A stretch of 62,988 nt of DNA, counting the filler, from Rhabdomonas costata (taxonomy: Eukaryota), in the NCBI GenBank assembly GCA_019059605.1. It is 39 parts of 39 records of this genome, joined end to end, with 100 filler letters (N's around TTAATTAATTAA, not from the genome) between each part and the next. Parts side by side here need not be neighbours in the genome. Positions count along the whole stretch, not along the records: positions 38,820 to 40,339 come from JAHMHO010014003.1; 38 more parts are not named here. One strand, given 5' to 3'. The notes beneath the pieces were generated by a model. That model did not search any database and was not told the origin of the DNA. It was given only the letters and a program-made list of their open reading frames with translations. The position numbers were made by a program, and so were the translations under genes. Shown here piece after piece: positions 10,064-51,781 of this stretch. Position 1 is the stretch's first letter. Each line of letters begins with the position of its first letter.

Positions 10064-10842
10064 GCCGGTGACTCCGCGGAGGTGGTGATTCAGGACGTCA
10101 CCCCACCGAAGCCTACATCTCCGGACGTCCCCCCGTCGGGTGGGGACGGCGGCGTAGCCCCCACGGCCGAGGGCGAACTCCCAGCTGCCGGTTCCTCTTC
10201 GGACATCTTTCTACTGGAGGTGCTGCCCAGCCGCTACCCAATCGCTCTCATGCCCTGGCATCGAGGAGTTGTGTGTCGGTGCCTCCTCCTTTAATGGCTC
10301 GCCGGTGAAGAAAAACAAGGCTTTACGGCTTTAGGAATTCTAACTGTCAGAAGGAGCGTGAAAAGAGTGTGGCACATCGTTTCATTCCATCAGCCACTCC
10401 AGTACGCATCGTATGCCCTTGCTTGGGTTGGGTGGGTCAAGCATAGGTCCCGGTGGGGGTTTTGATCCATGACTGAACAAGGGGCAGCGTAAATTTTGAG
10501 AGGTGATTGACTAGGATCGATCGTGATTGGTGATCGACCCCGCCATTTTATGCCCAAATTTTTACCATGATGCCTCGCAGGAATACGCAAATGGCTGTGT
10601 GCAGGGTGACTGCTGGCTATGTGAGTTTCTTTTCCCGGGAACAGAACGAGTGGACGATCTGGTTTGACGACGCGGTGGAGCGCCACATGACCTCCTCGCA
10701 GTTCGTCAGCTCCCTGAGGGAGCTGGGCTCGTTCAACAGTGTGCAAGGGTTCTGGGGGTACTGGAATAACCTCCACATCGACTCCTTGCGCGGCAACTGC
10801 AACTTGCACATCTTCAAGAAGGGCATCACTCCAATGTGGGAG
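10064..10842 (+). CDS. eIF4E: eIF4E-family cap-binding protein, exons 10064-10219 and 10645-10842
   Basis: Spliced ...DIFLLE|NEWTIWFDD...LGSFNSVQGFWGYWNN...LHIFKKGITPMWE matches the eIF4E WxxW, FW and FKxGIxPMWE motifs; phase-0 GT-AG intron 10220-10644. Confidence 0.92.
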
Positions 10843-12952
10843 GTCACCCCCCTCCCCCCACCCCTGAGGGACGAATGGCACCGTGGCTATTCTTAATTTT
10901 GCTGGGTTTTGACATTTGGCTGGGTTCTGGGACGCAGTCTTTTAATGCTGGTCCACCAACATGGGGGAAATGTTTGGGACATTCCTGTTTTTATAGTAAT
11001 GGAAGCAGGATGCGGTCCGGGTGAATGTGGATGTGCCCGTGTTTTTAATGAAGTTGATGCGAGTCCCCTTTCCCTTTCTGAACTGAAATCAGCAGGCCAC
11101 CGCGTCTAGAAGGTTAGTTCACGTTCCTAAATTGCAACATGCTCATCGGCAAGGTTCTTTATTGTGCCCACGTGAAGGCTCTCCAATGTTGTGCTTTTTA
11201 TCTTTTGCACGCTGTGCAGGGTCCCACAACCCCNNNNNNNNNNNNNNNNNNNNNNNNNNNNNNNNNNNNNNNNNNNNTTAATTAATTAANNNNNNNNNNN
11301 NNNNNNNNNNNNNNNNNNNNNNNNNNNNNNNNNTGTGGGAACAGCGTAGTTGCATCGAGGATCAGTTAATTGGGGACCGGAGGGGACTGGACCCCGCGAA
11401 GACACCTGCCCCATGACGGGCTCCAAGGAGCGCGAAAGAAGCGCCGATCTGCTGGAATAGCCGTCCTCTTCTTCCTCGGAAGATTTGTGTTCACCCGCAG
11501 GTTCAGGTTTGGTGCTGTCCAATTCATTCACATCGGTGAAGGGAGCAACCGCAGCGCTCGCCGGTGGAGAGTTTACGCCAGAATTTTTCGAAGCAAAAGG
11601 GAGGGAGCGGGCTCCGCAATGCACGGAGCAGCATTTCAATTGGAAAGTGAAACTAAATTAACGGATTTCCAATTCTGGACCTCTCCCTGTCGGGAATTCT
11701 TCTTTAATGAATGAGTGAGTGAGTGGGGCGGTTAATGTTTAAGAGTGACGGCCAAAGGATTGCTGTAAATCCTTTGGCAATGCTAATAGGGTGTACAGAT
11801 GACCCTCAGATGGCTCTCCGTGGCAAAGATGACGTATTTCATGGTCAAAGAAAAAACCCATATGACAAAATGAATGAAGGCATTCAGACACCACATAACA
11901 GAGAATCGCACGCACCATCTCAAACGGAAGTGCTATTCAGTTGAATTCATGCCGGGGACGTTCATGCAAACTCAGAGGATTACAGTGCAGCCTGCGTTTC
12001 TTACCAATGAAACTTTTCTATATCGGCCTGCTCTCGAGAATTGCAGAGGCAGCTTCCTGGAGTCTTTGAGTGTCGTGGTATAGTGCAGGGGGTGGCCGTA
12101 AGAGTCCATGCCAGGCCCAATGGCAGCAACCCACTGCGTTGCAGAGAAGGGGCGTCGGCTCTGTTGGCAAGGGATGAGCTGATCCCCACAAAAGCATGCA
12201 AGCCAACGGCCAACGGGCCGGGTTCCTCTCATTCGTCTGTGCTCCACCACTCACGCACTCCCTGTTTTTTCCCTTCCAAAACAAAACACAACGACAGTTG
12301 TCAAATCTCAGAGAGAAACAGGAGACAGTTTGGTGACCTTCTGAATAAAAAGGAAGGGAAACCGTGAGGGCTAAGTCGAAGCAGGCCTGAGGTCTCTTGC
12401 GTATTTGTGTATGAAGCAGGCGTCCCCAAACGCCTGATGGTATTATCAGTGATCTTCCTACGCCCTTCTCTGAAAGTTGGGATGATAGGCGCACTTTTCA
12501 TTGTGTGATTTCGGTGAACAGCGCGATTCCTCTTTTTGACTACCTTACTCCTGACAATGAGCGCAACGTTCTCAGCGCAACGTTCTCCGGCGATCTCGGA
12601 AAATATATGGCTTACAGCGATGCACGATGCCTCCGCAACAGCACCAAAGGCGAGACAAGCGGACGGAATCACTATGTGGTAGAAAGCTGCGCACAGAAGT
12701 TCTGCTCAGAATACAGGCGGATAGACAAGACGCTGACACGGCAGTTCCTGATCCACTGTGCATAGACACAGTGCCCATTCACAACACAGACACACAGACA
12801 GAGATAACAATCATTATCAATCATATCAAACGTGCCCAACATACAAACCACGNNNNNNNNNNNNNNNNNNNNNNNNNNNNNNNNNNNNNNNNNNNNTTAA
12901 TTAATTAANNNNNNNNNNNNNNNNNNNNNNNNNNNNNNNNNNNNNNNNNNNN

Positions 12953-15154: not shown

Positions 15155-15962
15155 CATGACCTGTGCCGTGTCCACTGGCTGTGCGTGAAGGGGCTTCCGT
15201 TCCATAAAACTAAGGCGGAGATTCTCGCCGACTTAGCCGCCTTGCTGGCGGATCGCGGTACTGTCCAGGCGGTAGTGATGAAGAAGCACAACTGGTGTGT
15301 ATATGACTGCGTGTTCCGGTTCGACGTGCACGCAGTGTATGGACGGAATGGGACACCCTGGAAAGGAAACTGTTCCCATCAGCAGTGGTGGGTGCTGGGA
15401 AGGCGACTTGAACGTAAGTACATAGTGTGAACTTACAAGCGCCGAGCACCTGCCCTGCCATGGCTGCAGCAGGGTCGAAGAGAAGGGAGTGCGGGCCAAA
15501 TGCCTGGAACACGCGGGACTACGGGGAGGGCAGAGGGAGACATAGGAAGTGGAGTCTTCATTTGTAGAAAGCCAGGGCAGCCATCATGCCATTATTCTTT
15601 CATGCCGTTATGCTTGCACCGTTCCTGTGTGGAAAGGAGGAAGGACGACAGTCCCTGCACCTTACCCCCATGGGCAAGGTGTGCCACTGTTTCAGCATAA
15701 GGATGTCCGCCCCGAAGCTCTGCTGCCGTTTTCCAACCTTGGTGCTTCGTGAGTGAGTGACTCCTTTGTACAGGCGTTCCATTCTCCCTCTTTTGCTGTG
15801 GTGGTGGGGACACTCTCAGGCTTGCCCGGGTGAAGTTTTCCACTCCGAAGCCAATTTACACCAGGGAGTTGTGCGAGGTGCTGAGTGGGCGACAGTATGG
15901 CGACCGCTGGCTCGCTGTGGAGCCATCATTGATGGGCGGGGCGTCGGTGCATTCCCCCAGAG
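15155..15962 (+). CDS. RRM-domain RNA-binding protein, exons ~15155-15294 and 15820-~15962 (outer boundaries approximate)
   Basis: RNP2-like LCVKGLP, then AEILADLAALLADRGTVQAV; phase-2 splice TG|G gives NW-LARVKF (RNP1-like) ...LSGRQYGDRWLAVE. Confidence 0.7.
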
Positions 15963-16740: not shown

Positions 16741-18559
16741 GTGAGTGCGGGCCCCCGCATAATAGTGGGTACGATACACTACTCCCCCCAAAAACGAACG
16801 CGCAAGCAACTCCAAATACAAGCAATGCGCATCCGCACTATGACATGGGGGAATCGCACCCCCACCCCCCTACCGCTACTCACCACTTTGTTCAGTTTGT
16901 TTCGTCCCCTGACGTTTTGAACAATCCTCCACCAATGCCATTTTTGTCACCGTCACATTCCTTTCCTGTTTCAGTGTTTGTATTTGCATGTATTTTTTCT
17001 TTTTTCTTTTTCGTCTTTGTTTCTATTGTGTTTAATTTTCCCCTGCAGATCTCTCTCGCGCTCCTTCTTGTAAATTGTTTGTTTTTGGTGTTGCACCCCG
17101 GACTCTTCACGAACTCCTGTGCCTGTGCTGCAGTGCCGTGATGTTTCTCAGACACGGGGGAAGAAATTTGAAAATGAAGCTTCTCTTTTATGCCCCTGAG
17201 AGCAGATATCACTTCCGGTCCACCGAGAATAGATTAAATAATGTCTGGGTTGCTGCACCGAGCTGACCAGTCTGCTGCACCGAGCTGACCAGTCCGCCCG
17301 GATCTCAAGAGAAGAAGGAGAAGGAAACGAGCAGGCTTGCGGTACTGAGGGGGTGGGTGCAACCCCTGAACCTGAAGCAGCTGCTCCCGGCGAACCTTCA
17401 CCATGGCCTGAAAGGCGCTCATCCACAGGTGAAAGCCTTCCACCATAGACCTAAAAATTCCCCCCCTCCAATGTCTAGCTCCATAAAAACAAAAACACAA
17501 AAGCAAAGCAGGAGCGAATACTTGGAGTGCATGGATTATATGATTGTTGACACCACCAGCTCTCCGCCACGGCAGACAACTCGAGAAATGCATTCCATCT
17601 ATTACGGTGTCCTCGTTTGGCAGGGCAAACGACAAATAGCAATATCAATAACACGATGACACAGAAGCAATTCGCCTTCGCATGGACGATTCAGAGACAC
17701 CCACCACCNNNNNNNNNNNNNNNNNNNNNNNNNNNNNNNNNNNNNNNNNNNNTTAATTAATTAANNNNNNNNNNNNNNNNNNNNNNNNNNNNNNNNNNNN
17801 NNNNNNNNTGGTACCAAAACTCCCCCTTCGGTCTCCCGCCTTGCTCTTCTAACTTCTCCTCTTTCGATTCTGCAACGAGACTCTTCCGCAACTTCGTACT
17901 GCAACTTGCCTTCTCGGCTTCTCTTCTCTTCTTTCTTCTTTTTCCTTTGCGCTGAACTCGGCCTGGGGAGGCCCCCTGGCTGCTTTTTGCTCCTCCGCAG
18001 TCCCTCTGCTCTGACCCGCTGAGTTTCAGCTTGGGTGGGCACTGCTTGCCGGGGCCTCGCGGCTTGAACCCGCACTCTCTGCTTCTCCTTGTTCCGCTGC
18101 CTGCCCTGCCCTGCCATCCGGGAATGCTCCCAGGGCTCTCCGCGCACTCCTCGACTAGTCCTGCCGCTACTCATCAAACTCCTCTCCCCAACTTGCTCTT
18201 CAACAGCGTCCTGAAGCCAGGTCGTCCTCTACACCTGCGCTCTGCACTTTCTTCTTTCTCTTCGGCAATCTCCTTTCCACGCACTTTTCTCCTCTCAAAG
18301 GTCAGATCCCCACAAAAGTCTTCTCTCTTTCCTTGCAACTTTCTTGAAAGCTAAGCTCTTGAGTTTCATTTTTGTTGTCTCTTTGCAACTTCAACGATTC
18401 TGCTCTCAGATTGAGAACCATTCGTATCGGAACTTCACTGATCTCCTGAGATCTCACTGATTATTTACTCTCTCTCTCGCAACATCCGCAACAGTTCAGC
18501 TCTAAGCTGTCTTTCAGTAAATGGAACTGCTCCTGGAACCTTCTGACGGCTTCTGGGTC

Positions 18560-19327
18560 TCAGTAAGATCCCACCAAAACACTGGGTGATACCACTAATT
18601 CAAGTAAATTGGAATGCGTTCCGTGTTAGCGATCGGCTTTTAATCGCAATTTCTGCCAACAATTCAAGCTTTTGCCGCCACTTTCATGGGTGTACAACCA
18701 TCAACGTCCTTAACACTTGATTCATCGTATAATTGTCCTCTCCGATTGACCATTCGTCTGGGGGTGATACGGCGACGAACTTCTCAAGTTCACATCCAAG
18801 AAACTCATCAGATACTTCCAAAATATAGACATGAAGATTGCGTCTCTGTCGCTTACAATGATTTTCTGCAATCCGTTGTAACGCACCACCTCCCACCAAA
18901 ACAAACTTGCAATGTCAGCTGCTGTGTCGGTGTTCAGACACGGGATCAACACGACCATCTTTGTAGATCGATCCGTGACCGTCAAGATCTCGTTGATTGG
19001 CTCTTCGTTCACTCCAAACTGCCACACAGTTTTTGGCATCGTCACGAAGTCCATGAAAATTCACTCCCACTTCCTCACTGGAACGTCCAACAATTACTTT
19101 CGTATGCCCTCTTGGCAAATGATAATCTGCATTGAAACACTGAAAAATGTCACAGGTACGAACGCAAGCCTTCACTTTCCTCTCATGCTCATGAAATTAA
19201 AAGTCCTCTTCAACATGGCTGTGGTCCTATACACTCCCCAATGTCTGCGAATGGGGAATAGTGGTACTTCGAAATGACCTCTTTCTCCATCTGGTACTGC
19301 ACCACAATCTTCCATGCATCACAAACA
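18560..19327 (-). mobile_element. Ty3/Gypsy integrase, zinc-binding region and DDE core, degenerate
   Basis: H-WGVYRT...CVRTCDI; MDFVT, LTVTDRSTKMV, IVSDRD, SSPYHPQTNGQSER; frameshifts on either side of the core. Confidence 0.92.
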
Positions 19328-30628: not shown

Positions 30629-31302
30629 CTGAAAGACCCTCCCCACACACNNNNNNNNNNNNNNNNNNNNNNNNNNNNNNNNNNNNNNNNNNNNTTAATT
30701 AATTAANNNNNNNNNNNNNNNNNNNNNNNNNNNNNNNNNNNNNNNNNNNNGTGGTTTTGACACAGTTTACCTAACCCCGTGTCTTAAAAATAACATCCCA
30801 AAAAATGTGTCTGATTTGGACGTTTAGAACCGCTAACGGAGCATCGCCCACCCCATGTCCTCACGTCCCAACCCGTCCGCCCGCTCCGGCAGCGCCACGG
30901 ACTGGCCTCCGCGGCGCTGGCCTTCGCACCCAAACTATAGCCATCTCCTGGGAACCGTTCATCGCCCTTGCGTTCTGACCTATACTTTTGACAGTGCTAA
31001 GAGTTTACCCCCCCCCCCAAAACAATTGATCCTGCGTTGGTGCACATGTAAATCACAGGAACTGGGCTTTATATCGCAAATGGGTTCCTGGAGGGCTCGC
31101 GTTCTTGACGCCAAGGTATATAGCTTCTGACAGAGTGCCGATCAAAAAAATATAAAGTCAGCAACTACTGCCACCCAAGTAACAGCCGAGTTGCCAGCGT
31201 GAAAATACGGCTACCGATCGCCAATAAGGAGCGGGAATGGAAACGGGAGCAGCGAAGGCATTCTGGCTTTGAAAAAAATTGAAACGTAAATGGGGCATCC
31301 AC

Positions 31303-31976
31303 CCGAAGATCTCCTCCCGGGCGCAAATGTTTTCGTCTGTCACGCTGGTGAGCACTGTGGGGTTAATAAAGTAACCCCTCGAGCCGTGGCGAGCTCCGCC
31401 ACACTCCACCTTCGCGCCCTGCTTCTTGCCCTCCTCCACGTATCCCAGAACTTTCTTGAACTGAATCTCATCCACCTGCAGCCCCCACATTCCTCACATC
31501 ACACCCATGGAACACACGATTGAGTTGTAAGCATCGGTTTCCAGGCCACAGGAACACCAAGAAAAGGAAAATCCAGGAAAGAAAACGTGAATGATAAAGT
31601 TTCATTGCCGTGGAAAGAACCGTCGATTGATGAGGAAAAACGACGACCAACTGTAATAAGAACGTCTCACAGTCAGGATCAGAGAGAAGTTTACATTTCC
31701 TTGGGGCGAACTTTTGACGATTTTCTTAAGTTTGTAGGAGGTTTGAGATAAAAATAGCGGTTTGGTCAGCAAAATAGCTGAAAATGCTCTGCGTCATGTT
31801 AAATTAAAAACACATACATATCACATCATGACGGGGTGGTAGACCTGTGGGCCCTGCTCTGTGGACCCAGAAAACGGGTCGCCAAGCGTAATCCCTTGCG
31901 CCCGCTGTACGAACTCGGATACGAAGCGGTCGTAGATCCCCTCTTGGACGAAGATCCGGGAACCCGCAGAACATAT
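31303..31976 (-). CDS. ALDH: Aldehyde dehydrogenase (ALDH1/2-like), exons 31976-31845 and 31475-31303
   Basis: [18 protein letters not shown] (catalytic Cys region), [25 protein letters not shown]; phase-0 intron. Confidence 0.95.
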
Positions 31977-32369
31977 CTGCGCACAGAAACGCACTGAGCT
32001 CATGGACAATACCCAGCGGGCTCTCTTCCACAAAGCGTTCATTTTTTGTGGGCGGCCACGTCACAAGGGTTCCCTTGCAAACGCACGCCAGCGGTAAGGA
32101 ACTATGGGTTAATGCAGCGACCGACCTGAAGTACAGTCTTTCTGGGAGATTTCTTGGAAGAGGTGAAACGTTTCAACACACAAAGGCAATGCCACCAGTA
32201 AGGCAACGGCAAATGCAGCACACCACAGAAACCATTTTTCACACCAACANNNNNNNNNNNNNNNNNNNNNNNNNNNNNNNNNNNNNNNNNNNNTTAATTA
32301 ATTAANNNNNNNNNNNNNNNNNNNNNNNNNNNNNNNNNNNNNNNNNNNNTGTGGGGTGTGTTTGGTTTT

Positions 32370-37102: not shown

Positions 37103-39220
37103 NNNNNNNNNNNNNNNNNNNNNNNNNNNNNNNNNNNNNNNNNNNNTTAATTAATTAANNNNNNNNNNNNNNNNNNNNNNNNNNNNNNNNNNNNNNNNNN
37201 NNTTGTTTGGGTAAGGTGGTTGGCTTCTTCAACTCGTACGGCAAAAGCGGTCCGTAAAACTCATGTGCGTAACGGAGTGCCGCTGTAGACAGTGGGTCCA
37301 TCTTGCTGTTGCCATCGGTTCTGTTGCTCTTCGAGAAACTGCCGATTCTGACTTGTGATGAACTGGCCCTCCCTTGAGAAAACTTCAAGCTTTTTGTGAA
37401 TCTCCGTAAGTAGCTTCGAGTTTGCTTGTTCAAAGTGGCTCTTCCATGGCGGTGTCGGGCCCAGATGGCCCGCACAAGCCAACTCGAGGGCTTGGTTGAG
37501 CTTCTCCGGCCTTTCCATTGTCTGATCGGAAGGGTAGGAGGCAAGCATGAATTTTGAGAAGGATGATTGAAAGCTAGGTTCGATATCTTTGGGTTGATAT
37601 GGCGCCGAAAGTAGTCGGGTCTTAATGTCCGCTGAAAGGAATCTTTCCCGCAGCATTTGCGCAAAACCAGCCCGGTTTGTGGTTGGGACTTTGTTAAAAC
37701 CGCAATGCCGCGCGGCAACCTGGTCCGGAAGATGCTTGGTGCGTTGGATCTGGCCATGAAGAAGTATTGGTCGCGGAGGAGACGGCCAATGTCCGAAATA
37801 GAGATCACGGAGATGATTCGATGAAACGACGGGGATATACCGGGCTTACCGGATTGACCGAAGGACGACTCTGCGCACGGTGCTCCACTTGCTGACCCGC
37901 AAATTGTTCCCCGACCATCTTGCTGACCTTAGAAGAGGATCACACCAACAGCTGATGAGGAAAACAAAAGGCAAAAACAGCACAGGATTTCAAAACTTTT
38001 TTCCCGCTGCTACCAGGTGTTACGGGGACCCGGTCCTGCCGAACCCGATCGGCTTTGTCTGGGCTGGTCACTGGCATTTCAATGCGGAGGATCCGTACCG
38101 GAACCCACAGATCCGACCGAACACCCACCCGAATACACGATCTTTCCACCCAAGCGCTTGGCAGCTCGGCCCCATGCCCGTCTTTTCTTTTGGGGGGTTT
38201 GTATAATGGTGCGGGTGCATGGGGTCCCGGTTCGGAACCCCAAATATTTCCCAATTACATCAGCATCTCGTCAATCGCAACCTGAGGCGCAACTTCTCAC
38301 TCCTTAGCAACCCTCCCATGACTGGAGCTCCCCTTCCGCTTTCTGATCCGACACAATCCAGTACCCATCACTTTCCCCTCATCTCAACGCACGCATTGCT
38401 TCCGGATAAGACGTCGTCGTCGTCAAGGGAGCCCTTCAATTGGCATGTCTCATTCTCATGCGTCTGACACAACAGAAGCCGAAAACCAACACTTTCACTC
38501 ATGACGATATTGCTACACAAGTCAAGGCACTGCAAAGCAAAGTCCAGGCAAAAAAAAGGAAGGCGAGCCACAAATCGCGGCAACGACACTTGCATTAGGT
38601 GGTGTGCATCACTTGGAGGTATCGTTGCCAAGACAATGTCCGATTCTGCCCCCTCTCCCCTCACCACAGACCACCCGCGCAGGAGCGACGCGTGCACCGT
38701 GGTACGAAACCCAAAACCCNNNNNNNNNNNNNNNNNNNNNNNNNNNNNNNNNNNNNNNNNNNNTTAATTAATTAANNNNNNNNNNNNNNNNNNNNNNNNN
38801 NNNNNNNNNNNNNNNNNNNGGGGGGGGGGTGACCTATGTTTGTACACTTCTGTACAGTGGACAGGGGACGCAAACCGACTGTTCATGACACCACTAAAAA
38901 GAGATTGGTGTGGTATGATGTGTTCTTTATCCGTGCAAAGTGTGCACAGAAATATATGGAGACAGGAATGGAAGGTTGGATTTTAGGAAAGCATGGGACA
39001 CGGCTACGTCACTGTGATTGCATGCTTAAGCGGTGCTACTAATAACGAGAGCAAGCAGATATGGCTCCGTATGGCAGATCACTTTATTGTAACTTTACCT
39101 GAGGAATTATTCACTCCCTATTCACTCAATATATCGGGTCACTTCTTCCACACCATAAGTCGAGATAGGCTGGCCGTTCGGGGCTCCGCTTGCAGCGCTG
39201 CTTCTTCTGCTCTACGTCAG

Positions 39221-40110
39221 GTGCAGCTTGTGCGAGAGCTGCAGCAGCTGCGGGCGACGAAGAAGATGCTGGAGGAGAGCGGGGCCCCCGCTGCCGCGGT
39301 GGAACCCGTGCAGAAGCTGATCACCGAGAAGGACCCCCACATCGACCCCGAGTGCCGGGAGCTGCTGCAGGGCTGGCCCGAGCTAAAATCCAGCTATGCC
39401 CAGGACAACCTGGTGTGCAACTGTGTGTGTTGGGAGCGGCGTAGCTGGGTGATGCTGCTTGCATCGACCGGACGTCCAGACGGCAATGAGCTACTTGGGA
39501 GCTCATCCCCCTCCCCCTCGTTTTTCGAAGGTACGGCATGTCAAACTGATCAACATTGCACCAAGCATCCGAAAGAAAGTAGTAAGGCTTGGAGCATTGT
39601 TGATCCGCGCCAGCGTATTTAATCCAATAAACGCCGACTTCAGCTGCAGTCTAGGAATAAAGCCACTCACGAAACGACTGGCCGACACAGCGGCACAGGT
39701 CCTGTGTGCCGCACCTTTTCTTCCCAACAATACACAGAAGTCATGGGCACTGGGCATGATGGACCGCTTAGCGGCAGTTTCCTTCGCAAACCCCACAGCA
39801 ACAGAGCCGAGGGGTAGGCACATTTCAAGAGCAGTACAATTTTCGGTTCTATTAGTGCACATTGTCGGGAGGGGCCAAAGATAAAATCGTGGCCTGAGAA
39901 AGGGTGGTAAAACTTCGGTTAAAACCTCTCTAACACTCATGTGCTCGCATCCAGGAAGCCCACGGGTTTCTTTGTCGGTCAGGTATACCGAGTGCGCGAC
40001 AAGGAGATCCGGGTGGAGGTCTCCAAGCGCTCTCTTTCGGGCACCCGCGTGCCCAAGGTAGCGCTGCCGTCCTTCCAGGACGACGGAGAAATCCTCCGTT
40101 GGCTGTGCAA
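39221..40110 (+). CDS. icmF: Fused isobutyryl-CoA mutase (IcmF)-like protein, exons 39221-39412 and 39983-40110
   Basis: Spliced VQLVRELQQLRATKKML...IDPECRELLQGWPELKSSYAQDNL|VYRVRDKEIRVEVSKRSLSGTRVPKVALPSFQDDGEILRWL matches the IcmF linker motif (W...Y...xRDKEIR...SLSGxxIxKVxLPxYxDxGxILxW) that precedes the mutase domain; phase-0 GT-AG intron 39413-39982. Confidence 0.85.
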
Positions 40111-40446
40111 GTGTGCTTTTGGGGAGGGGAGGAGTTGGGGGCCCGCTACAGAGAGGCTGCCGACCGCTCAGGCCGGCTGGCCTTACTCCTGAAAATGAGT
40201 CCATCCCACTCGTGTTGATTTTCTGTCTTGTCGCAACCTCTCCTAGTCCTTTCTCGCTGCTGCCTCAATTTCCGTGTGCGCATTTATTTGCCGCTGCCAC
40301 CGCCATGCAGACACTATCATAGAAAACTACACAACCACANNNNNNNNNNNNNNNNNNNNNNNNNNNNNNNNNNNNNNNNNNNNTTAATTAATTAANNNNN
40401 NNNNNNNNNNNNNNNNNNNNNNNNNNNNNNNNNNNNNNNGTGGGGG

Positions 40447-40564
40447 GGGACAGAAAATGAACTCTAACAGGGTGTGCTCCCATGCAAAAAATCCAGAACC
40501 CCCGCCACGGTATCCTGGATTTTTTGCATGGGAGCACACCCTGTTAGAGTTCATTTTCTGTCCC
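40447..40564. repeat. About 50-bp perfect inverted repeat with 18-nt loop at contig start
   Basis: 40447-40496 is the reverse complement of 40515-40564. Confidence 0.9.
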
Positions 40565-46995: not shown

Positions 46996-48192
46996 GCAGC
47001 TTTCGGACATGGGGCTGACGGAAGTGGACAGTGCGTTCAACGGGATGGAAGCGGTTGAACTTGCAAAGAAGCGCAGGTGTTACTCCACCCTTGGTTGTTC
47101 TGGTCAACTTTCTGAGTAAGTTATTGTCTTATCGTCGGGACCTAAACTTGCCTTTACCGCGGCGGCACCTGCTACCGTGCAGCCTGGATGAGTTACCCTA
47201 AGCACTCCACAACCTTTGATGTGCCAAGGCGGGCACCCCCCACCTACCCACCGGGCCATGCTACTGCCTCGACACCCTGAGTTAGTTGCAGGCAGATTCT
47301 GCATCTTCGATGTGCCGCCAGGCGCATGCAGAACTGTCTTTGACTGCCCTTTTTGATGAAGGCACGTCCAGGGGTCGAGAGCGTAACCCATTGGATAACC
47401 CAGAAAGACTGTGTGGTGATAGTGCCCCCCCCACACACACACACACCGTACACACACAGTTGCAGTTGAGAATCTGCATTGTAGAACTCAATATGTAAAT
47501 ATGCAGAGCTGGTTTAACTTGAAAACACAACATAGTACGGAGCACTCGAGATGTTCTATTACGGGGAGCTCATTCCGGGGGACCTCATTCCGGAGAACTG
47601 ATCAAGCGGTGAGATGTCCGATTTACTGCCTTCAAAACTCCAGCTCCCTCCCCGTTACGACAAATTACCGAACCCCCAAAACAGCATTCCAGACATGAGA
47701 AATACTCCTTGCCACGCGATTGCAACAAAACTCTTTTGTACAGTCGTGCAGCGCAGCCAGGCGCTACACACTCAACTCGTCCTCGACGATCTCTAATACG
47801 CCTCTAACACCACTGTGGTGATATCCCGTAGAACTGGGAGGGGCGACTCCATAAATTGCAAAAACGGAAAGGAGTTTGGGACAGGGGTGCTCCGCCGGAG
47901 CTGAGATAAAACTGGTGTCTTTTGACCCCACAGCTATTCCGTTATCCTGATGGACGTTGTGATGCCCGTGCTGGACGGCATGGACGCCACGAGGCAGATT
48001 CGGGGCCTCCCGGGGTACGCCGAGGTGCCCATCGTTGGGCTTTCGGTGGACCGCTCCGCGGAGGACGCCCTCCAATGCCGGGAGGCGGGAATGACGGAGG
48101 TGCTGGTAAAGCCACTGAGCAGCCAGGCCTGGCGTTCCATCGCCAGCTTTGTGGGAAGACAAGTCCCGTTCGGAAAGGGGCAGCAGGCGTGA
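46996..48192 (+). CDS. C-terminal response-regulator receiver (REC) domain, exons 46996-47076 and 47934-48192
   Basis: [41 protein letters not shown]...PIVGLS...CREAGMTEVLVKP; phospho-Asp, Ser and Lys positions intact; phase-2 intron; stop at 48192. Confidence 0.93.
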
Positions 48193-49115
48193 GTCAGCGA
48201 GAGTTGAAGAGAAGGAATTTTCAATCTTGGAGGAGGAAGAGCGCCTGGAGGAGACCAAGGTTTCTTCATTGTGTGCAAGCAGTGCGTTTTGCTTTCCCTC
48301 GTCCTTTCTGTTTTTTCTTTTTGGTTTCCTACTTGTAGTTGCTTGTTGTCTCAACGCAAGCGTGTGCCCTGCTTCCTTCCCGCATTCGTTCTGATTCTTA
48401 CGAGCCACCGAAGCAAACCCCCGAACCCCNNNNNNNNNNNNNNNNNNNNNNNNNNNNNNNNNNNNNNNNNNNNTTAATTAATTAANNNNNNNNNNNNNNN
48501 NNNNNNNNNNNNNNNNNNNNNNNNNNNNNAATTTTAAGAATGTGTTTTCTATGTTCTGCCAAAGCGTCTGGTTGCAATACAAATGTTCTAGAACACCTGA
48601 TCAACTCAGGTCACCTTTTCCCTGTGAAAGGAGGATAAATTGTCTTATTTTGGGGTTGTTTTTTTTGGGAGGGAGGGAGTTCTCAAATATTATACATTAC
48701 AAGATGGCCTTTTCCGGTGACGTCTAATGTCAGTGAGTGCTTCCCTCATAACGTGCACTTGGTGGGGTGAAACTGGGGCCGGAAACAGCGTAAATCGGTA
48801 CGAGCACCGTTTCATGTGAAACATGAAACATGGTTCACATGCAATTTCCCCCTTGATCCTTTGGCTTCTTTGTTTCTAGCGCTGGTTACCGGTGGATGCG
48901 TCTCCACCAATTGGAGATTCTAATGTTCTTAACGCACCCCGCTTCCTCGCATAACCAGACAATTTGTGATATTTGAACAAATGAGGATTCGATTCCTGAG
49001 CGAATATCCCTGAGAGAATATTTTCAACTTTGATGGTTACGGCACATCCATATTTGCCTCGTTCCCACACTGTACCTCCTGTTCAACGTGCCCTGAATCC
49101 CACTATGTTCCACAG

Positions 49116-49353
49116 TGTGTCGGCGGCGGCGGCGGCAGCGGCTCCCTCGAGCCTGCTGAAGGCGAACTATGAGGAGGTGGGGCGAGTGCTGGGCCGTGGT
49201 GGGTGCGGGTCCGTGGTGCTGGTGCGCAGCCGCACCGATCTCCAGGATTACGCCCTGAAGAGGGTCCGGCTACCTGCCGGGCTGCCCGCGCCGGAGCTGG
49301 CCAAGCTGACCCAGGAGGCTGTCCTGCTGGCCCGCTTGGACCACCACAACGTG
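49116..49353 (+). CDS. Ser/Thr protein kinase N-lobe exon (eIF2-alpha-kinase- or NEK-like)
   Basis: LGRGGCGSV glycine loop, YALKRV (catalytic Lys), QEAVLLARLDHHNV (alphaC Glu, HxN); donor runs into a (GT)n tract. Confidence 0.9.
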
Positions 49354-51781
49354 GTGTGTGTGTGTGTGTGTGTGTGTGTGGATGGGCACGGCACACACCG
49401 TCACCCCAATGCCCGTCGTGTCGTCCAGTGCGAACAGCAGCACCGTGAACGCGCCAAAAGACCAGGTCTGCAGAACAAGCAGTACAAGGACACGCCACAG
49501 CACAATGCGCCAAGGCGCCATGTGTTTTTTGTGTTTAGCCTTACAAGGTGCGGGAAAGAATCCAACAAGACCCCAAGGTGTGGTGCGCCCGAGGAAAGCG
49601 TGGGGAGCAGGCCACAGGCCACCGTGCCACTTCCGGGGTCATCAGAAGACAGGCGACGCCGTCTAGCTAAAAGAATGAAGAGCGTACAAGCAGAAGATGG
49701 GAATAAGGGAAGTGCGGGAAGCCAGCTGACAAGGAGAGCAGAGGCCAGCCTCGAGGAACAGCTCAAGCCCAAGAAACAGCGAAGCCTGATGAGAACTTCA
49801 AAAACCGAAAAGAGTAGCCGACAAGGACCCGAAAGGTCCCGAAGTCCCTGGCGAAGAGCGCCAGGGACGGCGTCGCCACGATTGGGGCTCTCGTGGTATG
49901 AAGAAGATGACCTGAGGATCCCAGGCAGAAGAAGAGTTGAAGAAAACCATGGCTTGTGCACGAAGTCAGTGGGCGTGTGTGTATGTTACTGCTGGGCTGT
50001 TTCCCCTCACCTTTCTCGAGCATTTCGAACGCATCTTACCACACAACACACNNNNNNNNNNNNNNNNNNNNNNNNNNNNNNNNNNNNNNNNNNNNTTAAT
50101 TAATTAANNNNNNNNNNNNNNNNNNNNNNNNNNNNNNNNNNNNNNNNNNNNCCGACATCAATGTGGCTAAGGGGTTCTGAAGCTGCTTGGAACTCATGGA
50201 CTACAATGGGGTTGCTGTCGAATTTCCACTCATGCTTATGTGCGAGCAAGAAAGCAAGGGAGACCTCGACGGCGAATTAAGAATCTGGCGTGATTTTGTG
50301 TTGCAAGGGCTGGTCTTGAGAGTTGAGGGTCCTTCTGGGGTACCTTCATCCCAGCGACCAGTCAACAGATCGTCGCTTTTTCAGCGTTTCTTGAGCCATG
50401 TTTGTTCTGTTCTCGAGGCTTTCCTTTGTTTTTAGGAAAAAGCGTCAACACGCAGAGGAGTCCTGGCGCAAGGAGGTGGAGACCCAGGCGCAGAGTCGGC
50501 GAGGAGCCCAACTCGCATCTCCGTAGTTGCTTTGCTGCACTGTCAACTGCATCATACCGCGGTTGCGGAGCTTCCGATTGCGTTCCTTTGTGCACGTGTG
50601 GTTGTGAAGAGGGTGTCTTGCATCTTTCTTGATCCTGTGAGAGTTTCGAGCTGTGCGAGCGCGCGCGTGCTGTATTTTTGTGGACAGAACGGTACGGATT
50701 TTTTTAAGCTCGGCCTTCTGAGCTCGGCATCGTGTGCGCGTTCTCAATCCCCATGTTCTTTTTCTGGTGACGTTTGGTGGTCATCTCTTTCTTCTCCTCT
50801 TTCATTCCTGTGCCTCCCTCGGCCGTCTGCCTGCTGCATTGCAAAAGGACGAGGCGCTACTGGTGGTTTTCATGACCTCTTGCACGTCGACTGTGTTTGA
50901 GTTGCTTCCTTTGCTTCACATTTTTCCCTCCATACGAACGAATGGAGGCCTGATCACAGGATCCAGCACGGTCTACTCCAGCCTATTGTGTAAAATGTTG
51001 TTGCACGCCAAGTAATGGTTTGCTAACGTTTTAGGTTGTTGGATGAGTAGCTTTACTCGACCTTACTCGACGTTTGTTGGGGAGGAGGCCGCTGGTGCTT
51101 TTCGCCCAACCCCCCTCCCTCACTCTCAAACAATGGCATAAAGTACCCATCTAGACCCATCTGAATGGTTGACCCCGACGGTTTTGTGGTATTTTCAGAG
51201 CTTTGGCTGATCCACGAAGGGTTGCGGAGGGATCAAGCACACTCGCTGAACACTGGTTTAATCGCTGGGCTGCAACGCCTGTTGTCCCGTGTCAATACGG
51301 TTTTTTCTCGCAGCCTTTTGGAATCCCCCTTTCCTTCACTTTCAAACACCCACAAGAATGAAAAAGGAAGATCAGCAACTGGTGTGTGCTTTTTTCTAAT
51401 AAGTCGTCACCCTTTTCTCATTGACCACTTGTGCTTACGACTGCCAAGAATTCACAGACCGAACCGGTTGTGTTTCGGCGGTGAACTGCTGTCGCATCAG
51501 CACAAGCGTAGAAGGTTATAGGGATTCACCCTTCATTGATTTGCGCAAGCTCAGGAGTCTTGGTGATACTTCTCTCCTGTGTGTGGGCCAGAGCGGGTTT
51601 CTTGCCGAGATTCAGCACAAGAAGCAGGAGATGGAATACCAGGTGCAGCAGTACCAGTTCCAACCACANNNNNNNNNNNNNNNNNNNNNNNNNNNNNNNN
51701 NNNNNNNNNNNNTTAATTAATTAANNNNNNNNNNNNNNNNNNNNNNNNNNNNNNNNNNNNNNNNNNNNGGGGGGGGTTGCG

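Follow-up and report, generated by a model that had tools for sequence, protein, structure and literature searches.

A probable nuclear, intron-containing eukaryotic homologue of the bacterial isobutyryl-CoA mutase IcmF, seen through its linker exons

The locus described here raises the question of whether a bacterial-type isobutyryl-CoA mutase, fused to its own GTPase chaperone in the manner of IcmF, can be encoded in a eukaryotic nucleus. According to PMC7435645, the B12-dependent enzymes reported from eukaryotes are just three, namely methylmalonyl-CoA mutase (MMUT), class II ribonucleotide reductase, and methionine synthase, and MMUT is the only acyl-CoA mutase among them. Isobutyryl-CoA mutase is described as restricted to prokaryotes in an excerpt of bioRxiv 10.1101/2020.10.13.337048, the preprint of PMC8085122. 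Searches of full-text literature brought up no account of an ICM or IcmF from a eukaryote, so that an intron-bearing IcmF would widen the eukaryotic B12 enzyme set. Such genes may already be listed in databases or supplements under the generic name 'methylmalonyl-CoA mutase'. The contig studied here carries homology to and collinearity with IcmF, an intron-like architecture, and an exon 2 that is conserved at the protein level between diverged flanks. From these features a bacterial-type isobutyryl-CoA mutase gene probably resides in a eukaryotic nucleus, and we set at roughly 0.7 the probability that what the contig carries is part of a eukaryotic nuclear gene, interrupted by introns and homologous to bacterial IcmF.

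The whole stretch of DNA that was analyzed, called the window, is 62,988 bases long and consists of 39 contigs of 1,499–1,522 bp each, apparently ordered by length and separated by N/TTAATTAATTAA/N linkers. Because the window is made of joined contigs, adjacent pieces are not genomic neighbors and are uninformative on the IcmF gene. The contig with the IcmF exons shows no similarity to the remaining pieces of the window, and about 106 codons of roughly 1,100, or about 1/10 of the gene, are visible on it (Table 1). The overall GC content of the window is about 0.5; this value and the extreme fragmentation are similar to those of published euglenid drafts (PMC8219788), a likeness that is no more than suggestive. 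Rfam gave 0 families and ARAGORN 0 tRNAs on the window, and a euglenid spliced-leader motif gave 0 hits in it. Several contigs start with poly-G runs (e.g., 38820–38829), which resemble a sequencing or assembly artefact.

Table 1. Features of the IcmF contig, of other contigs in the window, and of two public relatives of exon 2. Positions count along the window; exons and introns are predicted.
Feature	Position	Strand	Description
Contig with IcmF exons	38820..40339		1,520 bp; N/TTAATTAATTAA/N linkers on both sides; neighbors unrelated
Upstream intron, 3' part	38840..39220	+	at least 381 nt; GC 0.465, GC3 0.465; pyrimidine-rich tract, then AG at 39219-39220
Exon 1 as seen	39221..39412	+	192 nt, 64 codons; C. 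metallidurans IcmF residues ~489-548, in linker; GC3 0.89
Phase-0 GT-AG intron	39413..39982	+	570 nt; GC 0.52; from donor GTGTGC to acceptor TCAG; has no repeats in common with the other pieces
Exon 2	39983..40110	+	128 nt, 42 codons + 2 nt; IcmF residues ~549-591; GC3 0.81
Next intron, 5' part	40111..40339	+	at least 229 nt; donor GTGTGC; contig stops before next exon
eIF4E exon (eukaryotic initiation factor 4E)	10534-10893	+	PF01652, E 4.6e-17
Two aldehyde dehydrogenase exons	31158-32060	-	Pfam PF00171, profile positions 258-312 and 309-371
Response-regulator receiver-domain exon	47926-48189	+	PF00072, E 7.5e-13; GC3 0.82
Protein kinase domain, N-terminal part	49000-49400	+	PF00069, E 3.6e-6, below gathering score
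P0003			77 aa; on 3,933-bp public contig
P0004			84 aa; on 749-bp public contig

Searches with the two exons point to a single enzyme family. In the PDB, exon 1 matched Cupriavidus metallidurans IcmF (4XC6) in one stretch over residues 489–546, with an E-value of 2.8e-4 and 24.7 bits. Exon 2 matched only 2 distinct sequences at E ≤ 10, both of them C. metallidurans IcmF, over residues 550–589 with an E-value of 2.4e-9. None of the methylmalonyl-CoA mutase, MeaB, or MMAA chains in the PDB was matched by either exon even at E ≤ 10. In the exon 1 search two designed armadillo-repeat proteins stood above IcmF by summed E-value; none of their single stretches passes, and they were rejected as relatives of exon 1 and attributed to repeat noise. 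In the profile search that the initial annotation had proposed for the peptide, NCBIfam returned the IcmF equivalog NF045497 as the sole family for each exon, at model positions 449–508 for exon 1 (E 9.1e-6, 23.7 bits) and 510–550 for exon 2 (E 7.3e-12, 43.9 bits), the equivalog cut-off of 1,500 bits being out of reach for about 1/10 of the protein. Pfam gave no domain model over the segment encoded by the two exons. A profile built from 56 full-length bacterial IcmFs was compared with the window, cut into 2,263 six-frame pieces, and matched only the two exons (E 1.6e-11 and 2.5e-16), the next best piece having an E-value of 5.3. Further IcmF exons in the window were found neither with this profile nor by tblastn with 8 bacterial IcmFs. 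The cobalamin-binding domain (PF02310) and the MeaB-type G domain (PF03308) lie off the contig, and the barrel (PF01642) would begin in the next exon, past 40339.

The region so matched is the linker of IcmF. Passages of PMC10481361 assign residues 22–442 of the C. metallidurans protein to the Cbl and G domains and residues 443–1093 to the linker and substrate-binding domain; the exon matches fall inside the second fragment, and on that division the exons would encode the linker. Both exons correspond to the structured linker between the MeaB-type G domain and the substrate-binding barrel, which is a defining feature of IcmF, and the exon 2 segment is the end of this linker, where the conserved beginning of the mutase barrel follows directly. 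The initial annotation had taken the motif for the IcmF linker and had stated that ordinary methylmalonyl-CoA mutase lacks it; the PDB and NCBIfam matches, which are in order and adjacent, and the lack of any matched methylmalonyl-CoA mutase chain in the PDB bear out both statements. In addition, all named or annotated relatives that carry this linker are IcmF or have the IcmF architecture (PF02310 + PF03308 + PF01642). The intron-bearing fragment of an IcmF-type gene is real and belongs to a known, well-understood enzyme family.

The two matched segments are separated by 570 nt, and the way in which they join was examined by combining 8 GT and 9 AG sites near the two edges. Twenty-three of the candidate joins were in frame and free of stops, and their peptides were scored against a profile of 73 bacterial IcmF regions, which are the full-span matches among 81 fetched loci. 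The join 39412|39983 preserves the frame and ranks first of the 23 with 133.7 bits, the runner-up having 129.6. The joined peptide of 105 residues fits the 73-region profile end to end at about 133.6 bits with no indel at the junction, and its sole insertion, of three residues, lies in the variable middle of exon 1. By tblastn a single segment spans the junction in 73 of the 81 bacterial loci. The spacer begins with a GT donor and ends with an AG acceptor, its removal restores the frame, and the junction is collinear with uninterrupted homologues, as is the case for a spliceosomal GT-AG intron. These features support the view that the spacer behaves as a GT-AG intron, and its splicing is predicted. 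The two donors on the contig are both GTGTGC, and both acceptors are CAG. The GC3 of the exons drops to 0.53 in the intron and is 0.47 upstream and 0.61 downstream; a value at least as high as that of exon 1 (≥0.89) occurs in 0.12% of random 192-nt stretches of the window. The peptides quoted in the initial annotation were reproduced by translating 39221–39412 and 39983–40110, and its description of two GC3-rich exons around a phase-0 GT-AG intron agrees with the composition, the splice sites, and the ranking of the joins.

The outer ends of the two exons were placed with different degrees of confidence. The acceptor before 39221 is preceded by a tract with 71% pyrimidines, and seven of the eight in-frame codons at 39197–39220 end in T or A, unlike those of exon 1. 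IcmF alignments reach 2–5 residues upstream of 39221, and farther upstream than about 39206 nothing resembles IcmF. Exon 1 likely starts at 39221, and since the alignments extend upstream of this position an alternative acceptor at 39195, with exon 1 starting from 39196, may be used. For exon 2, position 40110 is a plausible 3' end. The last two residues of the exon (C and K) are conserved in the public relatives P0003 and P0004 and are aligned to the profile, the donor GTGTGC follows them, and translation beyond 40110 has no IcmF similarity. As the reading frame beyond the outer ends of the two exons does not go on into the neighboring IcmF residues, at least three introns are implied.

The search with exon 2 against 1.84 billion cluster representatives recovered two short ORFs, P0003 and P0004, each 98% identical to it (41/42 residues). 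In both, the identity starts at a Q, which is the in-frame reading of the acceptor CAG, and ends with '...RWLCK'; it is absent on either side. P0003 and P0004 are read-through translations of genomic DNA, and, being such, their conserved block marks the exon and their unrelated flanks mark diverged introns. Because exon 2 is near-constant while its flanks have diverged, both of its boundaries, including that at 40110, gain support. The same pattern supports the view that exon 2 is under purifying selection. Exon 1 had no match in the 'longer' or 'near' searches of a collection of 5.8 billion proteins, and in JGI metagenome contigs 598 pattern hits with it gave 0 confirmed relatives. The protein collections searched gave no spliced, transcript-derived, or full-length eukaryotic protein of this gene, and exon 2 matched only P0003, P0004, and bacterial proteins in them.

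Bacterial relatives are numerous and at some distance. A pattern scan of prokaryotes covering 185,579 species, with one genome per species, gave 591 confirmed relatives. The best 80 of these 591 are 53–73% identical over exon 2, and none of the genomes scanned exceeded 73%. Across the 81 bacterial loci the median identity over the joined 105 residues is 46%; the best identity is 57% over 97 columns (overall at most 57–60%). An alignment-based scan of the JGI metagenomes gave one locus, which is an uninterrupted bacterial IcmF. The phylogeny with bacterial homologues that had also been proposed in the initial annotation was built by a quick method from 73 bacterial regions and the joined peptide (74 rows, 105 columns), a sample biased in that it derives from the 80 best exon 2 matches. 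The window sequence sits on an end branch of 0.57 and joins no supported group; the nearest rows by path are Beta- and Gammaproteobacteria. With no supported placement and a biased sample, no donor is named. The closest bacteria are GC-rich lineages, and for this reason the high GC3 cannot separate host from donor.

Other contigs of the window have a eukaryotic character, among them those with the eIF4E exon, the receiver-domain exon, the protein kinase exon, and the pair of aldehyde dehydrogenase exons. Between the two aldehyde dehydrogenase exons lies a GT-AG intron, roughly 360 nt long, with the donor GTCTAC, and the next donor is GTGGAT. Atlas look-alikes of the eIF4E exon belonged to uninformative taxa. 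The source of the IcmF contig may itself be a eukaryotic contaminant of the sequenced culture.

The most direct alternative is bacterial contamination, under which a bacterium in the culture would be the source of the contig, and the 'intron' would have arisen by insertion or through faulty assembly. In its favor, the known occurrences of IcmF are otherwise bacterial, the fetched relatives are bacterial without exception (81/81), and artefacts, poly-G ends among them, occur on these short contigs. However, the IcmF similarity stops abruptly at AG or GT on three sides, and the flanks are without the neighboring IcmF residues. Removal of the GT-AG-ended spacer gives an exact junction free of indels, whereas the bacterial homologues are uninterrupted. 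The exon edges are identical at two further loci, those of P0003 and P0004, and the identity over exon 2 stays at or below 73% in every bacterial species genome scanned. Contamination of this kind is very improbable. The initial annotation had argued for eukaryotic residence and against contamination, and the intron-like spacer, the eukaryotic co-contigs, and the limited bacterial identity over exon 2 all point the same way.

Two other readings accept the intron-bearing gene and dispute what it does. The gene could be a decaying relic, i.e., a transferred IcmF gene that is nonfunctional, its exons being remnants or parts of a truncated or re-used gene without mutase activity. Against this, both exons are open and strongly biased by codon position (for exon 1, GC1/2/3 is 0.73/0.36/0.89), no splice-site dinucleotide has been lost, and the identity of exon 2 with two loci whose adjacent intron sequence is unrelated points to purifying selection. 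We regard a relic as unlikely, with some weight left to it by the fact that two exons only are seen and that the protein collections yielded neither a full-length eukaryotic protein nor a counterpart of exon 1. Less probable again is that the gene encodes a fused G-protein/acyl-CoA mutase with an IcmF-type linker and another substrate (methylmalonyl-, ethylmalonyl-, 2-hydroxyisobutyryl-, or pivalyl-CoA), which would make the label 'isobutyryl-CoA mutase' wrong. The residues that set specificity sit in the barrel, downstream of 40110 and off the contig; the bit scores of the fragment stand far below the NF045497 cut-off; and the end branch of 0.57 lies outside the supported bacterial clades. 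Set against these points is the uniform annotation of the named relatives with this linker as IcmF or as the three-domain architecture given above, and no other fused mutase family was matched.

Comparison with characterized systems places the nuclear IcmF homologue as follows. The exons are collinear with C. metallidurans IcmF (PDB 4XC6, 8SSL; 1,113 residues) over the two stretches given above and keep its conserved linker motifs. Unlike that enzyme, the window gene would be broken by at least three introns, its identity is moderate, and it is known from the linker part alone. The best matches are the NF045497 proteins of Pseudomonadota (Burkholderiales, Casimicrobiaceae, Oceanococcus) and Bacilli, which are 58–73% identical in exon 2 and, in the joined peptide, up to 57% identical across 97 columns; in contrast to the window gene these are uninterrupted and lie on long bacterial contigs, and the window sequence joins no supported clade with them. 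Eukaryotic MMUT and MMAA belong to the same superfamily and likewise comprise an AdoCbl-dependent acyl-CoA mutase serviced by a MeaB-type GTPase, but there mutase and chaperone are two distinct proteins, and the IcmF linker is absent. Streptomyces IcmA/IcmB is a two-subunit isobutyryl-CoA mutase that carries out the reaction expected for IcmF. It is not fused to a G protein and would hence be without the linker encoded here.

If the complete gene follows its family, its product would be a single chain made of a cobalamin-binding domain, a MeaB-type GTPase chaperone, the structured linker, and an isobutyryl-CoA mutase barrel, and the visible exons would encode most of the linker. We know of no role for this linker beyond tying the G domain to the barrel. 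As a segment that serves only this purpose is constrained, its conservation suggests that the fused architecture has been retained. The complete protein would be expected to interconvert isobutyryl-CoA and n-butyryl-CoA by AdoCbl-dependent radical chemistry, with adenosylcobalamin placed between the Rossmann and barrel domains. Through GTP hydrolysis, its own MeaB-type G domain would control both the loading of the cofactor and the clearing of cofactor that is damaged. In a complete IcmF this gating relies on GTP-dependent oligomerization, according to passages of PMC11672702 and PMC10481361.

The most plausible origin of the gene is a bacterial one with later introns: a bacterial gene would have entered the lineage and, once there, gained GC3-rich codons and spliceosomal introns. 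Horizontal transfer is what we infer here. Protists commonly receive genes by transfer. The IcmF reading of the initial annotation holds in its linker homology, its intron, and its eukaryotic context; the horizontal transfer and the metabolic pathway that it had attached to that reading stay at the level of interpretation. One may speculate on a role in valine catabolism or in priming the synthesis of branched- or straight-chain lipids. The fullest version of the proposal is that a complete and expressed IcmF, bacterial in origin and domesticated with introns, is encoded in the nucleus of a protist, as a fourth kind of eukaryotic B12 enzyme linking valine- or leucine-derived branched acyl-CoAs to straight-chain acyl-CoA metabolism. 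To this version we give a tentative standing, somewhat short of an even chance. If true, it would be a clean case of a bacterial multi-domain enzyme-chaperone fusion domesticated in the nucleus, and it would suggest that branched and straight short-chain acyl-CoAs are connected by an unrecognized route in a protist that depends on B12. If in addition the host is a euglenid, a link to, e.g., anaerobic fatty-acid or wax-ester synthesis could be drawn.

Some further observations concern the rest of the contig and the window. A stop-free frame of 253 codons on the minus strand (39503–40264), which runs over the intron and exon 2, was rejected as a probable non-gene: it matched no Pfam family and has a GC3 of 0.53, and the window holds five ORFs of at least 250 codons. 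Weak IcmF-like matches at 15254–15328 (+) and 18516–18572 (-) recurred with every bacterial query and were rejected as chance-level (tblastn E 0.3–7, profile E 5–8); one of them has six identical residues in common with the mutase barrel, and the second is similar to the stretch that comes directly after exon 2. The protein kinase exon runs into a TG/CA microsatellite, which is read as VCVCVC. The contig that follows the IcmF contig in the window begins with an inverted repeat (about 48 nt) that encloses a short spacer (40440–40560); this repeat has the appearance of a sequencing or assembly artefact.
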